64,000 bases of DNA from Candidatus Multivoradales bacterium. Its GTDB lineage: Bacteria; Acidobacteriota; Thermoanaerobaculia; Multivoradales; JAHEKO01. The position numbers were made by a program, and so were the translations under genes. This document shows positions 40,714 through 49,282 of the stretch, piece by piece. Under the pieces are notes generated by a model. The model made no database searches and was not told where the DNA came from. It was given only the letters and a program-made list of their open reading frames with translations. The stretch is taken from the NCBI GenBank assembly GCA_965223155.1, contig CBDCVR010000014.1, positions 768,001 to 832,000 of the forward strand, in the 5' to 3' direction. Each line of letters begins with the position of its first letter. Position 1 is the first letter of the stretch.

Positions 40714-41559
40714 TCAGCGTGAGCCCGAACGGCCTTCCAACTCGACCAAGCGCACGTTCACTCCGTCCGGAAGAACCAGTTCGAAGCGGCCTTCGGGCAG
40801 GCTCTGGTTCATCCGCAGGTCGCTGAACCGATACTCGGTCAGATCGCCGTCGCCCTCGACGTAGCGCAAGCGCACGGGCAGGAAGTACTCTGGGTGAAGC
40901 CAGAGGTCCATACTGGCGAGCCGCTTTGCGACCTGTTCGAATCGAGGCAAGAGCTCGAGGTGCAGGGGATCGCCCTCGGCGGCGGGCATGTGGAGCGAGA
41001 CCGAAAAGTATTCGAGCAAGGTATCCAGCGAGGTGCTCGCTCCGAGGTAGCGCAGGACCTGGTCCGAGCGCTTGCCGACGCTCGCCCGCTCGACCTGTCC
41101 CATGTCCCGGTACCAGGTCGTCATCACGCGATCTCTGATGACCAGCGAGATCGGCTCCGGCTCGACGTAGTCCCAGCGAACCTGATCGGGAGACCGGTAG
41201 ACAAAGAAGCCGCTCGACTCGCTGGTCCCGACCAGGAGCTGGCTTTCCTTGATCTGCACGAACTGGGATTCCAGGGTCTCGAGCGATGCATGGACCGCGC
41301 GCACAGTCTCGACCAGCGCATCCAGACGCTGGGTTGCCGACAGGCTCGAATCCAGAATCTCCTCGCGTCGATCCGTATCGACCGCAGGCGCCGCCCTGAG
41401 CGCGCCGCCGGCAACGAACGAGCCGGCCACGATCAACATTGAGACCATGACACCAACCGACGGGTCGAAGGAGGACCGTCGGCGCGGTGAGGCGGCGTTG
41501 CCTGCCTTCTTCCCGTGTGGGATCTGGTCGGCGGCGGCTTCGGAGTGGGAATCGTTCAT
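40714..41559 (-). CDS. lolA: Outer-membrane lipoprotein carrier protein LolA family
   Basis: LESQFVQIK...SSGFFVYRSPDQVRWDYVEPEP...TEYRFSDLRMN...RFELVLPDGV; signal-like hydrophobic segment. Confidence 0.8.
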   Translation of the reverse strand: MNDSHSEAAADQIPHGKKAGNAASPRRRSSFDPSVGVMVSMLIVAGSFVAGGALRAAPAVDTDRREEILDSSLSATQRLDALVETVRAVHASLETLESQFVQIKESQLLVGTSESSGFFVYRSPDQVRWDYVEPEPISLVIRDRVMTTWYRDMGQVERASVGKRSDQVLRYLGASTSLDTLLEYFSVSLHMPAAEGDPLHLELLPRFEQVAKRLASMDLWLHPEYFLPVRLRYVEGDGDLTEYRFSDLRMNQSLPEGRFELVLPDGVNVRLVELEGRSGSR

Positions 41560-42055
41560 CGTATGGATCTACCTGGCGGGTCGCTTGGTCAGATCGAACC
41601 GGGATCTCGTACGGAGCGTGGCGCGGAGTCGCGCACCTGTAAGGAACTGCAAGAGCCGGACCCACCCCTCTGGAACCGATCTGTCCGGGCTGAAGCGGGT
41701 CGAGCCCCACCGGAGCCGGCCCCGGCCACATGCCCGACCCATTTCCACCTACCAATCTGATCCCGAATCCGGACTCTCTCGCCTCACCCCCCGCCTGGCT
41801 CCGTTCCCACCAGCACTTCCGGCGTGCCGGGCCGTCCGATCCTAGACGACCGCCGGCACCAAGGCAAACGGGCCTTGAAGACCGAGATTAGACAAAAATT
41901 CGGTGCATCTGAGCGCTCGGGGGAAAAATCGGCGCGCCCCGCCACTTTCCAGGCGCTGTTTCGAAGCCGGCGACCCTCCCGGATCAAATCCATTTTCTTC
42001 TTGTTTCGAGGCTGGTTAGCTCGCACTTCCCAGGCCGCCCTGGAGCCCGCGCCAA

Positions 42056-42072
42056 CTGGCACAAACCGTGCT
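42056..42072 (+). promoter_or_regulatory. Putative sigma54 (-24/-12) promoter
   Basis: CTGGCACAAACCGTGCT = TGGCAC-N5-GTGCT with exact GG-N10-GC spacing; one mismatch to TTGC; AT-rich tract upstream. Confidence 0.6.
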
Positions 42073-42116
42073 CTTTCAGCCAATCGTTCGCGCATTTTCC
42101 GAAAGCAGGCACAACC

Positions 42117-42176
42117 ATGATTGAAGACCTTATCGACCTTCTGCTTCAGATCGAAGGCTTTCTCTGGTCCGACTGA
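42117..42176 (+). CDS. Putative 19-aa micro-protein MIEDLIDLLLQIEGFLWSD
   Basis: ATG 44 nt after the -12 element, purine-rich GAAAGCAGG 7 nt upstream, followed by a hairpin at 42190-42215. Could instead be part of an sRNA. Confidence 0.4.
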   Translation: MIEDLIDLLLQIEGFLWSD

Positions 42177-42285
42177 CGGTCCGGCCCTCCGGAAGCAGCA
42201 CCCCTTGTTGCTCCGACAGGCGCTACGGCACCCACGAAGGCCCGGGACGCCGCCGCCAGGCTCCAGACCGCGAACCGAATCTTTC

Positions 42286-42314
42286 TTGACACCCCCAGGG
42301 GCCGATGCTAGCTT
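42286..42314 (+). promoter_or_regulatory. Strong sigma70-type promoter with extended -10
   Basis: TTGACA (42286-42291), 17-nt spacer, TGc-TAGCTT (42309-42314), upstream of the FYDLN-type gene. Confidence 0.75.
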
Positions 42315-42341
42315 CCCGCCCCACAAAAGGGAGCGGGCAGA

Positions 42342-42491
42342 ATGGCGACAGAAGTAGATCTCGGAACGAAACACGAGTGCGAGAACTGCAGCACCAAGTA
42401 CTACGACTTGGGCAAGTCAGAGCCCGTCTGTCCTCAGTGCGGAGCCGGCCTCGACGGTGAAGAGCCGGCCGCTGACGACGAAAACGAATAG
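42342..42491 (+). CDS. FYDLN-acid (TIGR02300-like) small zinc-ribbon protein, 49 aa (not in the ORF track)
   Basis: [49 protein letters not shown]: LGTK-CxxC-YYDL-CPxCG plus acidic tail; AAGGGAG RBS. Confidence 0.88.
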
Positions 42492-46760: not shown

Positions 46761-48572
46761 TCACACGGCTTCCAGCTCGGCCTCGAGCTCTTGCCGTCTG
46801 GCCAACTCAGCATACACCCCGCCCGCGGCGAGCAGCGTGTCGTGATCGCCGCTTTCCGCGATCCGGCCGGCGTCGAGCACCAGGATGCGGTCGGCGGCGC
46901 GCACCGCCGAGACCCGGTGCGAAACAACCACCACGGTGCGGCCGGCGAAGACCGACCGCAGGTTGCTCAGAATCATCTCTTCGGTATCGGCATCGACCGC
47001 CGACAGGCAGTCGTCCAAGAGCAGCAACCGCGGCTCGCGGATGAGGGCTCGGGCCAGAGCGACGCGCTGCTTCTGGCCGCCCGAAAGCGTAACTCCGCGC
47101 TCGCCCACCACGGTCTCGAGCCCTTGGGGCAGGAACTCCAGATCGGCGGCCAAACCGGCGAGCTCGACCGCCCGCGCAACGCCGGCCGCGACCGGCGCCG
47201 GGGCGTCATCGGGGCCATCAGAGCCAACGGAGCCAGGCGCCGCCCGTACCGCTGAACCGCCCATAGCGACGTTGGCGGCGACCGTGGTCGAGAACAGGAA
47301 GGCTTCCTGCGGCACCACCGCGCACGCGCTGCGCAGCGACGCCAGCGGAATCGAGCGCACGTCGGCGCCTCCCACGAAGACCGCTCCCCGGGGCGGGTCA
47401 ACCAAGCGCACGAGAGTCGAGAGCAGAGTGCTCTTGCCGCTACCGGTGCGGCCCACAATCCCCAGGGTGCCGCCGGACGCGAGCTCGAAGGAGATTCCCT
47501 GGAGCGCCGGCTCGGTGGCGTCGGGATAGGAGAAGGAGAGATCGCGAACGGCCAGGCTGGTCGAAGAAAGCTCCACCCCGGCGACGCTCTCGGGGTCGTC
47601 CGCGATCGCCGGTGGCGTGGTCAGGATCTCCTCGATGCGGCCCATCGAAGCCGATCCGCGCTGCACGAGGTTGATAACCCAGCCGATCGCGATCATCGGC
47701 CAGACCAGCATCGCCAGAAAGAACTGGAAGCTGACGAACTCACCAACCGAGATCCGATCGGTGAGCACCAGACGTCCGCCGTAGACCAGGACCGCGACGA
47801 AGCCGACGCCCACCAGGAGCTGGAGCAAGGGGTGGAAGGCGGCGGTCCAGCGGATGAGCCGGGTATTGCGCTCGACGTAGATCTCGTTGATGCCGTCGAA
47901 GCGGGCGAGCTCCGAGTCCTCCATGGCATGGGCCCGCACCACGCGCGCTCCGGCGAGGTTCTCCTGAACCCTCGTCGATAGGGCGGCGAACTGTTCCTGC
48001 ACTTCCTCGAACAGATGATGGATGCGCTGACCGAAGACCTGGGTCGTCAACGCCACCAGCGGCATCGAGGACAGGGCCAGCACGGTCAGGCGCCAGTCGA
48101 TCCGGACCATGAAGAGCAGAGCGCCGGCGGCGGTCAGAACCGTCGAGGTCGAGTACATGATCGCCGGCCCGCACAGCATGCGCACGGCCTGGAGGTCGTT
48201 GGTGGCACGCGCCATGAGATCGCCGGTGTAGCGCTCCTGATAGAAGGACAGGGGCATGCGTTCCAAGTGCTCGAAGTAGTCGTTCCGCAGCTCGTACTCG
48301 ATGTCCCTGCTGAGCGAAACCAGGATCATGCGCTGGGCGAAGCCGAAGACACCCTGCACCGCGGTCACGGCGACCAGGGCGGCGCCGTAGGCCAGAAGCG
48401 TCGCCGGAGACGTCGTGCGCACGAACTCGTCGACCGCCCGGCCGATGATGAGGGGCGCCAGCAGCGCCAGACCGACCGCGGCCGCGATCGCCAGCAAGCC
48501 TCCAACGAGCTTGCCCGGATGGCGCCGGAAGTGCGCGCGCAGCCGGCCGAGCTTGCCGAGGGCGCGGATCAT
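46761..48572 (-). CDS. ABC exporter, fused TMD-NBD (MdlA/YheI-like half with degenerate Walker B)
   Basis: Six TM, TGDLMARATNDL, GRTGSGKST, LSGGQKQR, LLLDDCLSAVD; ATG 48572 overlaps the trmB stop. Confidence 0.93.
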   Translation of the reverse strand: MIRALGKLGRLRAHFRRHPGKLVGGLLAIAAAVGLALLAPLIIGRAVDEFVRTTSPATLLAYGAALVAVTAVQGVFGFAQRMILVSLSRDIEYELRNDYFEHLERMPLSFYQERYTGDLMARATNDLQAVRMLCGPAIMYSTSTVLTAAGALLFMVRIDWRLTVLALSSMPLVALTTQVFGQRIHHLFEEVQEQFAALSTRVQENLAGARVVRAHAMEDSELARFDGINEIYVERNTRLIRWTAAFHPLLQLLVGVGFVAVLVYGGRLVLTDRISVGEFVSFQFFLAMLVWPMIAIGWVINLVQRGSASMGRIEEILTTPPAIADDPESVAGVELSSTSLAVRDLSFSYPDATEPALQGISFELASGGTLGIVGRTGSGKSTLLSTLVRLVDPPRGAVFVGGADVRSIPLASLRSACAVVPQEAFLFSTTVAANVAMGGSAVRAAPGSVGSDGPDDAPAPVAAGVARAVELAGLAADLEFLPQGLETVVGERGVTLSGGQKQRVALARALIREPRLLLLDDCLSAVDADTEEMILSNLRSVFAGRTVVVVSHRVSAVRAADRILVLDAGRIAESGDHDTLLAAGGVYAELARRQELEAELEAV

Positions 48573-49282
48573 GACTCCGGGCTCCTGGCAACGGCCGAGA
48601 CAATGCCAGGCACGCCGGCCGGATGAAGGCCGGCTCCCTCGCCCTCGAAATGCGCCTCGATGCGCATGATGGGCCTGCCCTCGCGCATGTACTTGGCCTC
48701 GTAGTTGGTGCGGGCCCCGTCCGGCCAGGGCTCCGCGCGCGGCTCGACCCGGAGCTCGGGATGGCGGCCAAGCAGGTCCGCCACCGCCGCGCCATAGTCC
48801 GCATGGTCGGTGGCGGCCAGCAGCCGCCCCCCGGGCTCGAGCAACCTCAGCAGCAGATCGATCGACTCCGGATCGAGGAGGCGCCGTTCCTGATGCCGGC
48901 TCTTGGGCCACGGATCCGGGAAGTAGACGTGCACCGCACGAGCGAAGCGCCGCGGCAGGACCGCGGCGGTCAGGAATCTGGCTTCGCCGCGGAGCAGGAC
49001 GAAGTTACCGAGACCGCGGCGACGAGCCCGGCGACGGGCCATGCGGTAGTACTTGGAGACCACTTCGATACCCACGAAGCCGGTCTCCGGCCGGGCCGCG
49101 CAGCGACCGAGGAGGAAGCGGCCCTTGCCGAAGCCGATCTCGATCTCCCAACGCCGCGGCAAGCCTCGAGCCGGACCGGCCCGGTCGGGAGCCAAGAGCG
49201 CGTTCAGGTCCAGAGGCAGATCGACGCCTGCCAGCGTGGTATCGCCGGCCGGCGTCGCGATGCGAACCGGCAACGGCGTCAA
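48569..49282 (-). CDS. trmB: tRNA (guanine-N7)-methyltransferase
   Basis: EIGFGKGRFL, FVGIE, FPDPWPKSRHQERRL, ATDHADY, TNYEAKY. Confidence 0.9.
   Translation of the reverse strand: MTPLPVRIATPAGDTTLAGVDLPLDLNALLAPDRAGPARGLPRRWEIEIGFGKGRFLLGRCAARPETGFVGIEVVSKYYRMARRRARRRGLGNFVLLRGEARFLTAAVLPRRFARAVHVYFPDPWPKSRHQERRLLDPESIDLLLRLLEPGGRLLAATDHADYGAAVADLLGRHPELRVEPRAEPWPDGARTNYEAKYMREGRPIMRIEAHFEGEGAGLHPAGVPGIVSAVARSPES

Follow-up and report, generated by a model that had tools for sequence, protein, structure and literature searches.

Classical promoters of the sigma-54 class, served by bacterial enhancer-binding proteins (bEBPs), are exemplified by glnAp2-NtrC and pspA-PspF. Stand-alone sigma-54 promoters also drive small RNAs (sRNAs), such as GlmY, Qrr and Pxr. 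Bacterial regulatory proteins of fewer than 50 residues, as MgtS, MgrB, AcrZ, KdpF and SpoVM, are mostly transmembrane helices with basic flanks. Staphylococcal phenol-soluble modulins are amphipathic helices of ~20–25 residues, lack a signal peptide, and are encoded by tiny stand-alone genes under response-regulator control. Double-glycine leader peptides are cut and exported by peptidase-ABC transporters. Streptococcal ComS/XIP and SHP signals, which work with Rgg/ComR, derive from tiny hydrophobic open reading frames (ORFs) of ~17–25 codons, usually unannotated (PMC5131902, PMC5167397, PMC7564271). A DNA stretch of 64,000 nucleotides from a Candidatus Multivoradales bacterium (Acidobacteriota, class Thermoanaerobaculia), called the window in what follows, features a predicted sigma-54 promoter heading a micro-ORF of 19 codons only. 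The gap in which both reside most probably contains a genuine gene of sigma-54 type, conserved and translated into a micro-protein, and comparison with related genomes points to a new, lineage-restricted family of small proteins under unusual, dedicated sigma-54 control.

The gap separates a lolA-like gene (Pfam LolA), which starts at 41559 on the minus strand, from a 49-codon gene of the Pfam FYDLN_acid type (42342–42491, plus strand). It measures 782 bp, and is the widest inter-ORF gap in a crude gene list of the window, in line with the ~780 bp of the original prediction. All elements described below lie on the plus strand. The −24/−12 promoter CTGGCACAAACCGTGCT spans 42056–42072 (CTGGCACAAACCGTGCTC, 42056–42073, if one further base is included), with GG at 42058–42059 and GC at 42070–42071, in exact N10 spacing. 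Promoter geometry would place the transcription start ~12 nt past the −12 C, giving a predicted 5' leader at 42083–42116, within which the purine-rich stretch AAAGCAGG (42102–42109) may serve as a weak ribosome-binding site. The micro-ORF runs from the ATG at 42117 to 42176, stop included, and encodes the peptide MIEDLIDLLLQIEGFLWSD; its assignment derives from sequence, conservation and coding statistics. The A-tracts, AT-rich tract, promoter, ORF, hairpin and downstream promoter described for the gap before this analysis were each found in place.

The source genome (G000; 4.0 Mb in 15 contigs, 98.7% complete, 66.5% GC) carries the micro-ORF in single copy. In the following, G-numbers denote the genomes compared, L-numbers extracted loci or contigs, and g-numbers genera of one Thermoanaerobaculia family. 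The conserved unit is made by upstream A-tract sites, the motif YTGGCAC-N5-NTGC, a leader of 34–51 nt, a ribosome-binding site, and an ORF of 18–22 codons. It was identified at 11 distinct loci, in 8 of the 45 genomes of the family and in three metagenome contigs. By genus, the unit is found in 4/5 genomes of g1, 2/5 of g17 and 2/2 of g19, and in none of the 33 genomes of the other 17 genera. Three of the four genus-mates of the source genome hold, in the same gap, CTGGCAC-N5-NTGCT, a ribosome-binding site and a 20–21-codon ORF ending in G[FY]LW[STN]D. In G004, the fourth, the gap is short and lacks precisely the unit (~400 bp), with lolA, FYDLN and the SDF symporter gene in place. The intergenic comparison foreseen by the original prediction thus found both the −24/−12 element and the reading frame conserved, at 11 loci.

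A strict pattern run on the order (300 genomes) detected five true members and one chance match inside a long ORF, and its reversed control none; a looser pattern detected eight members in the family (45 genomes), again with none for the reversed control. In the class (401 genomes) the looser pattern yielded the true members G000 and G022, and missed G001 owing to its gap limit. Three of 45 matches in a scan of contigs from one genome per species were true, all from the same family. Eleven matches were obtained in public metagenomes, including three new members (L080, L081, L084) and, again, the G053 contig. The unit was not found in 255 genomes of the order or in 389 of the class sample, both sets being outside the family. 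As far as searched, it appears limited to a single family of Thermoanaerobaculia, plus a few lineages represented by metagenome contigs. When the gap was compared by BLAST to 40 relatives, the promoter of the FYDLN gene was the only part aligning.

YTGGCAC-N5-NTGC is retained at all 11 loci. The promoter motif alone is not significant, because its occurrences are near chance expectation: TGGCAC-N6-TGCT is found once in the window (expectation 0.06; at least one match in 6 of 100 shuffles), and 11 times in the 4.0 Mb of the genome, against ~8 estimated from base composition. What makes the promoter significant is that the entire unit recurs, conserved, at 10 further loci. A promoter scan detected no sigma-70 consensus site in the gap. 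The regulatory capacity is encoded: the genome has one rpoN gene (Sigma54_DBD match, E 5e-66) and 17 Sigma54_activat matches, of which 12 are strong (E 1e-51 or better). The sigma-54 layout put forward for the locus is supported, as rpoN and 12 strong bEBPs are present, the −24/−12 element is kept at 11/11 loci, and candidate A-tract sites lie ~100–165 nt upstream everywhere. Sigma-54-like sites total 27 in the genome, and several precede plausible target genes. One of these, encoding a type IV pilin-like protein (MARFINRRRSQKGFTLIELLIVVAIIGIIA...), starts 66 nt after TTGGCACGGGCGCTGCTCT (contig C14, ~1117012, outside the window), and is likely a PilR-type sigma-54 target. Since TGGCAC-N5-NTGCTCT precedes this gene also, the promoter form seen in the window appears to be in use in the source organism. 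A bEBP gene is located ~5 kb from the pilin-like gene, at C14:1122172.

The micro-ORF promoter would thus be sigma-54-dependent. It resembles classical sigma-54/bEBP promoters in the GG-N10-GC spacing, in the putative tandem activator-type sites upstream, in the AT-richer DNA in between, and in the presence of rpoN and many bEBPs in the genome. It differs from them because the only product of the unit is a peptide of 18–22 residues, and no activator gene is adjacent.

Two A-tract sites precede the promoter in the window. The proximal one, GGGAAAAATCGGCGC (41921–41935, placed by eye), is located ~136 nt before TGGCAC; the distal copy, GACAAAAATTCGGTGC (41891–41906), 30 nt farther upstream (~166 nt before TGGCAC), is a candidate second bEBP site. 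The motif A5-N(0-2)-[CT]GG[CT]G occurs 99–137 nt before TGGCAC in seven regex-matching loci of eight. The spacing is 121–137 nt in 6/8 loci, and 99 nt at the truncated end of the G053 contig. Many sites of the relatives are full palindromes, C[AG]CCG-N6-CGG[CT]G, as CACCGCTTTTTCGGTG and CGCCGAAAAAGTGGCG. The proximal site of the window, which failed the regex, corresponds by eye to the C[AG]CCG-A5-N-CGG[CT]G palindrome of the relatives, with a degenerate left half. Two tandem copies were seen by eye in G022 too, one copy in the remaining regex-scanned loci, and T-tract or palindromic versions, by eye, in G050 and G052. Hence an A-tract or palindromic site, here taken as a candidate bEBP site, lies ~100–165 nt upstream of TGGCAC at every locus (partly by eye). 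The palindrome CACCG-N6-CGGTG differs in spacing from NtrC sites. In the source genome the A-tract motif precedes no other sigma-54-like promoter, and the pairing is found only at the micro-ORF locus; a similar sequence close to a bEBP gene (contig C13) was rejected, being within a coding region. The AT-rich stretch between sites and promoter (~41982–42018) might be a bend or an IHF-type site. DNA is AT-richer in this interval in the relatives as well; the sequence of the supposed bending tract is not conserved among them.

The reading frame is conserved. All 11 loci have an ATG and a frame of 18–22 codons, and all peptides carry the motif G-[FY]-[LI]-W-[STNA]-D, in which G, W and D, as the initial M, are invariant. 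The motif is the peptide end at eight loci, and is followed by D, WD or KG at the other three. A GGAG/GAGG core is found 5–12 nt ahead of the ATG at 7/11 loci, and weaker AAGG-type sequences, by eye, in the window, G050 and G052; leaders of 34–51 nt are predicted at the eight loci analyzed. Within the six motif codons, variable sites number 1, 2 and 4 at first, second and third codon positions, respectively. The pooled GC content of the three positions (0.57, 0.31 and 0.73) resembles that of the lolA, tgt and SDF genes of the window. Eight peptides total 161 residues, of which one is basic, and their frame is free of stops. In the other two sense frames of the same DNA, 18 and 39 of 161 residues are basic, and stops number 3 and 4, respectively; antisense frames give 100 basic residues in 467, with 24 stops. 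Cys is absent from the 11 peptides, which overall have 2 basic residues in 222. Members of the closest pair, on contigs L081 and L084, differ in 14 of 20 codons, and changes are only synonymous or hydrophobic-for-hydrophobic; the proportions of synonymous (pS) and non-synonymous (pN) differences are 0.55 and 0.14. The micro-protein envisaged in the original prediction thus gains from the conserved frame, the ATG with its ribosome-binding site, the C-terminal motif and coding-type statistics. It had also been described as invisible to annotation, and 6/6 peptides looked up were missing from a collection of 15 billion proteins. The family motif G-[FY]-[LI]-W-x-D was not found in the 8.4 million papers and preprints searched, and nothing relevant emerged from literature searches on sigma-54 and small proteins, Thermoanaerobaculia, or Acidobacteria and peptides.

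Searched alone in the genomes of the family, the C-terminal motif gave 15 matches, against 2 for the reversed control. Eight of the 15 lie inside large proteins (six SGNH-hydrolase-like, two in a 1007-residue frame) and were set aside, as was a match in G047, likely a chance ORF. The SGNH-hydrolase-like proteins (assigned by motif, ~400–540 residues; L066, L070, L071, L072, L073, L075), found in six genomes of the family, carry DDGFLWWDWVH (DDGFLWWDWVHLTSFGQ), resembling GFLWSD(WD). The likeness is not taken as homology and is probably a coincidence, because the search pattern selected for it. Proteins of Pseudomonadales metagenome-assembled genomes (~630–750 residues, subtilisin-like by eye; L032, L034, L042, L043, L059) end in 5–7 tandem ANS[YF]LW repeats. 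Six AT-rich metagenome contigs with a 36-codon GYLWYD ORF and a perfect sigma-54 promoter were excluded as doubtful homologues. These contigs (L076, L077, L082, L083, L085, L086) share a near-identical element with the promoter TGGCACACAGCTTGCTTATA; the ORF measures 27 codons in L076. As upstream flanks differ among the six contigs, the element is apparently repeated or mobile in a low-GC organism.

The coding signal bears directly on whether the unit is a non-coding or dual-function sRNA of ~130–180 nt, acting by base-pairing, in which the seed would be the conserved stretch ahead of the hairpins, and the ORF incidental or secondary. Variation is frame-aware, as shown by the 3-periodic GC, the near absence of basic codons in one frame only, and the conservative hydrophobic swaps; the ATG with its ribosome-binding site and the length of 18–22 codons are kept in spite of ~30–50% nucleotide divergence. 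No match at gathering score was found with Rfam 15 in the window; between 41500 and 42750 there were three noise matches (eukaryotic miRNA or lncRNA models), with E up to 10. Fold z-scores of the predicted transcripts of eight loci range from −1.2 to +1.2, no better than shuffles. These data do not favour the sRNA alternative of the original prediction. In its favour stand the short predicted transcript, followed by GC hairpins at all loci, and a GGGG-N-GTGAAACGCGAA-like stretch at the leader start, common to g1 and g19 (by eye). GlmY, Qrr and Pxr count as precedents; the unit resembles them in having a stand-alone sigma-54 promoter and a short intergenic transcript, predicted here, and differs in the lack of an Rfam match or unusual fold and in its clear coding signature. 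An sRNA is accordingly rated as quite improbable. The GGGG-N-GTGAAACGCGAA-like stretch lies at the predicted 5' transcript end in L004, L007, L014 and L162; the window copy is diverged.

Two short hairpins (TCCGG/CCGGA and GCAGCA/TGTTGC) follow the stop at 42180–42211 in the minimum-energy fold, and form a possible, unproven 3' end. The second, at 42195–42211, noted before this analysis, is weak and short, lacks a U-tract and is not conserved; its reading as a terminator is less supported. Some GC hairpin is found past the stop in every relative, and none is conserved. A scan of the gap detected no terminator on the plus strand, and two terminator-like matches on the minus strand, one of which at an A-tract.

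The micro-protein reading is extended here to the peptide itself. Counted from the invariant Gly, hydrophobic residues recur at positions −2 (10/11), −5 (11/11), −6, −8, −9 and −12, and position −7 is Asp in 7/11 peptides. This pattern suggests an amphipathic helix in register with the C-terminal motif. Under some condition, a bEBP would bind the A-tract or palindromic sites ~100–165 bp upstream, and open the −24/−12 promoter at 42056–42073. A short monocistronic mRNA would begin near 42083, and its translation from the ATG at 42117 would yield an anionic amphipathic peptide of 19 residues, the entire peptide being the product. At its end, the helix would be capped by the invariant aromatic-acidic motif G-[FY]-[LI]-W-x-D. 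The hydrophobic face and the Trp cap may dock on a larger protein, or on a membrane interface, and modulate the partner. Taken as a whole, an autonomous enhancer-dependent gene, with an activator at the A-tract sites and a full-length 19-residue peptide modulating a partner, is on balance the reading we favour. We are more hesitant, at somewhat below an even chance, about intracellular action of the full-length peptide as opposed to action of an exported fragment.

The proposed mode of action has parallels among small proteins. As MgtS, MgrB, AcrZ, KdpF and SpoVM, the micro-peptide would be a condition-specific, very small protein binding a larger protein or the membrane; unlike them, the family is nearly devoid of basic residues, and features several internal Asp or Glu residues. 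Phenol-soluble modulins are likewise leaderless amphipathic helical peptides from tiny stand-alone genes under tight control. They belong to another phylum, are cationic or neutral, whereas the micro-peptide is strongly anionic, have a dedicated Pmt exporter, and share no motif with the family.

Several observations weigh against the favoured reading. Basic residues are usual in known small modulatory proteins, unlike in the micro-peptide family, and amphipathic moments are spread from 0.05 to 0.39. One or two residues follow the motif in g19 and G050, and a free C-terminal Asp is therefore not essential. The ribosome-binding stretch of the window, AAAGCAGG, is weak. Distant pairs are saturated (pN, 0.3–0.55, nears pS, 0.4–0.95), so that purifying selection is clear in one or two pairs only, and composition statistics overstate independence, because the 11 loci are related. 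Finally, no activator co-occurs with the unit, as tested by comparing the 10 GAFTGA-type bEBPs of the source genome with 57 from five relatives (G001, G003, G004, G053, G022); bEBP-like genes failing the Walker-A/GAFTGA filter, two of which in the source genome, were excluded from the comparison. The role of cognate activator probably falls to a core bEBP that has further tasks, or to the product of one of these excluded bEBP-like genes.

Peptide features also bring in the main rival, an exported signal or pro-peptide. According to it, a leaderless precursor would release (G)[FY][LI]WxD outside the cell, where the fragment would be sensed, possibly feeding back on the activator, as with ComS/XIP and SHP. 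Sequence identity is indeed concentrated in the C-terminal hexapeptide, and even peptides of one genus (G053 versus G022) have rapidly diverging N-terminal parts. An enhancer-dependent promoter would suit an on/off autoinduction loop. The active ComS pheromone corresponds to the C-terminal 7–8 residues, with a conserved Trp motif (PMC5131902). ComS/XIP and SHP resemble the micro-peptide in lacking a classical signal peptide and in having a conserved Trp-containing C-terminal motif; their genes adjoin a TPR receptor gene and belong to Bacillota, whereas the unit has no adjacent receptor, exporter or importer gene, is of sigma-54 type, and resides in a two-membrane acidobacterium.

Other data run counter to export. 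No exporter, protease, receptor or importer gene adjoins the unit in six genomic contexts, and Pfam scanning of 52 ORFs across the window, as inspection of the six contexts, revealed no maturase, peptidase-exporter or receptor gene. The peptide has no signal peptide, in a cell with two membranes, and, judging from the helix-like periodicity, which is in register with the motif, the entire peptide appears to form a single structural unit. Double-glycine leaders are similar in architecture: their N-terminal part is an amphipathic helix, and a short C-terminal segment comes after an invariant Gly. The micro-peptide has a single Gly where a double-glycine site is expected: there is no GG, GA or GS site, because the residue before Gly varies (E, T, A, Q, N, Y, L, F). 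The source genome, moreover, 98.7% complete, gave no Peptidase_C39 match. The ABC exporter encoded at 46761–48911 was rejected as a peptide exporter, being MsbA/SmdA-like and devoid of a C39 peptidase domain. No gene for a TPR-helix-turn-helix receptor is located beside the unit in the window or in other contexts, and the neighbour in L084 is TPR-only. Export of a fragment is therefore considered unlikely. Still a little less probable is the fuller form of the idea, in which the unit would be the signal gene of a peptide cell-to-cell circuit, and the released (G)[FY][LI]WxD would feed back, via the sigma-54 activator, onto its own promoter. If true, the unit would represent a Gram-negative counterpart of ComS/XIP signalling, without need for an adjacent receptor gene.

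A second small ORF was noticed in G022. It encodes 16 residues, MKIQSQIQAGGFLWTD; its ribosome-binding site is strong, and a sigma-54 motif is lacking (L074:1471–1521, corresponding to C5 ~2893884–2893934). It lies 157 nt past the gene for a 959-residue winged-helix regulator with MalT-like TPR repeats (L087:6848–9727). A receptor-peptide cassette was rejected, since four related regulators (G022, G053, G023, G016) are not accompanied by such an ORF.

The same lack of companion genes bears on the possibility that the micro-ORF encodes the precursor of a ribosomally synthesized and post-translationally modified peptide (RiPP), with maturation enzymes encoded elsewhere and the Trp-x-Asp end as the modified core. 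The peptide is precursor-like in its shortness, in its invariant aromatic core and in its amphipathic N-terminal region, possibly a recognition leader; Trp residues close to the C-terminus are modified in several RiPP classes, which counts for this reading. Genes of the radical-SAM, YcaO, lanthipeptide, P450 or peptidase-ABC kinds were found neither among the 52 window ORFs scanned nor next to the unit in its five other contexts. Furthermore, in most RiPP families the leader is more conserved than the core, and the micro-peptide family shows the reverse. A RiPP precursor is very improbable in our view.

The unit occurs in six neighbourhoods. In genus g1 and contig L080, lolA lies opposite to it and FYDLN-SDF follow; in genus g19, it is preceded by an AMP-binding enzyme gene and converges on TP_methylase and NAD synthase. 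A gene for an FHA-EAL protein is opposite to the unit in G050, where Exo_endo_phos follows, and one for a metallopeptidase-like protein in G052, where a multihaem cytochrome gene follows. Genes for a dockerin/TSP3-like protein and for a TPR protein precede it in contigs L081 and L084, respectively. The unit is the sole constant across these six neighbourhoods, which rules out a role as leader peptide for a particular downstream gene; in line with this, no constant same-strand downstream gene, as expected for a leader or attenuator, was found across the six contexts. In g19 the unit is convergent with the next gene, and hence has nothing downstream to regulate. The six neighbourhoods, together with the clean absence in one genus-mate, mark the unit as autonomous, and not as a leader of the next gene.

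These data also apply to the hypothesis that the unit is an extra conditional promoter, or leader peptide, for FYDLN-SDF (a dicarboxylate/amino-acid symporter), the micro-ORF being a functionless upstream ORF. In genus g1 the unit is oriented toward FYDLN and the SDF-family symporter gene, and read-through is possible, as no canonical terminator is found past the ORF. The SDF transporter gene dctA is under classical sigma-54 control in rhizobia, which counts in favour. The FYDLN gene, on the other hand, has its own promoter, TTGACA-N17-TAGCTT (42286–42314), conserved across genera and families, and G004 retains FYDLN-SDF without the unit. The g19 unit converges on the TP_methylase/NAD-synthase operon, neighbours in g17 and metagenome contigs are unrelated (cytochrome, Exo_endo_phos, TPR, dockerin-like), and the peptide sequence is conserved in its own right. 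We therefore give this hypothesis hardly any weight; as the sRNA and RiPP readings, it is less likely than the exported signal. The initial view that the unit is not needed to express the next gene agrees with the independently conserved FYDLN promoter, and with the lolA-FYDLN-SDF arrangement kept in G004.

The FYDLN promoter region is of interest in itself. The sequence at 42286–42325 (TTGACAcccccaggggccgatgCTAgcTTcccgccc), ~40 nt with a CCCC-N-GGGG spacer, aligns by BLAST across genera (L003–L009, around position 1500), and the alignment extends to G040, from a different family, with 81% over 52 nt. G018 has a nearly identical copy ahead of an IHF/HU-like gene (L009), whereas the only copy of G000 precedes FYDLN. 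The conserved spacer suggests that the region may be an operator in addition to a promoter.

Genes of the size of the micro-ORF are skipped by annotation pipelines. In the present case, sequence alone sufficed to define a complete regulatory and coding unit, made by putative enhancer sites, promoter, ribosome-binding site, 19 codons and a motif. It is a conserved unit, which moves among genomic contexts and is present or absent between close relatives. It provides a testable small-protein candidate for the poorly studied, mostly uncultured Thermoanaerobaculia, in which sigma-54 control, usually tied to large operons, would be given over to a single micro-protein. Should the product be merely a lineage-specific small protein, its interest would be moderate. 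If the peptide is a signal, or a modulator of core machinery, the unit would represent a new regulatory layer in Acidobacteriota.

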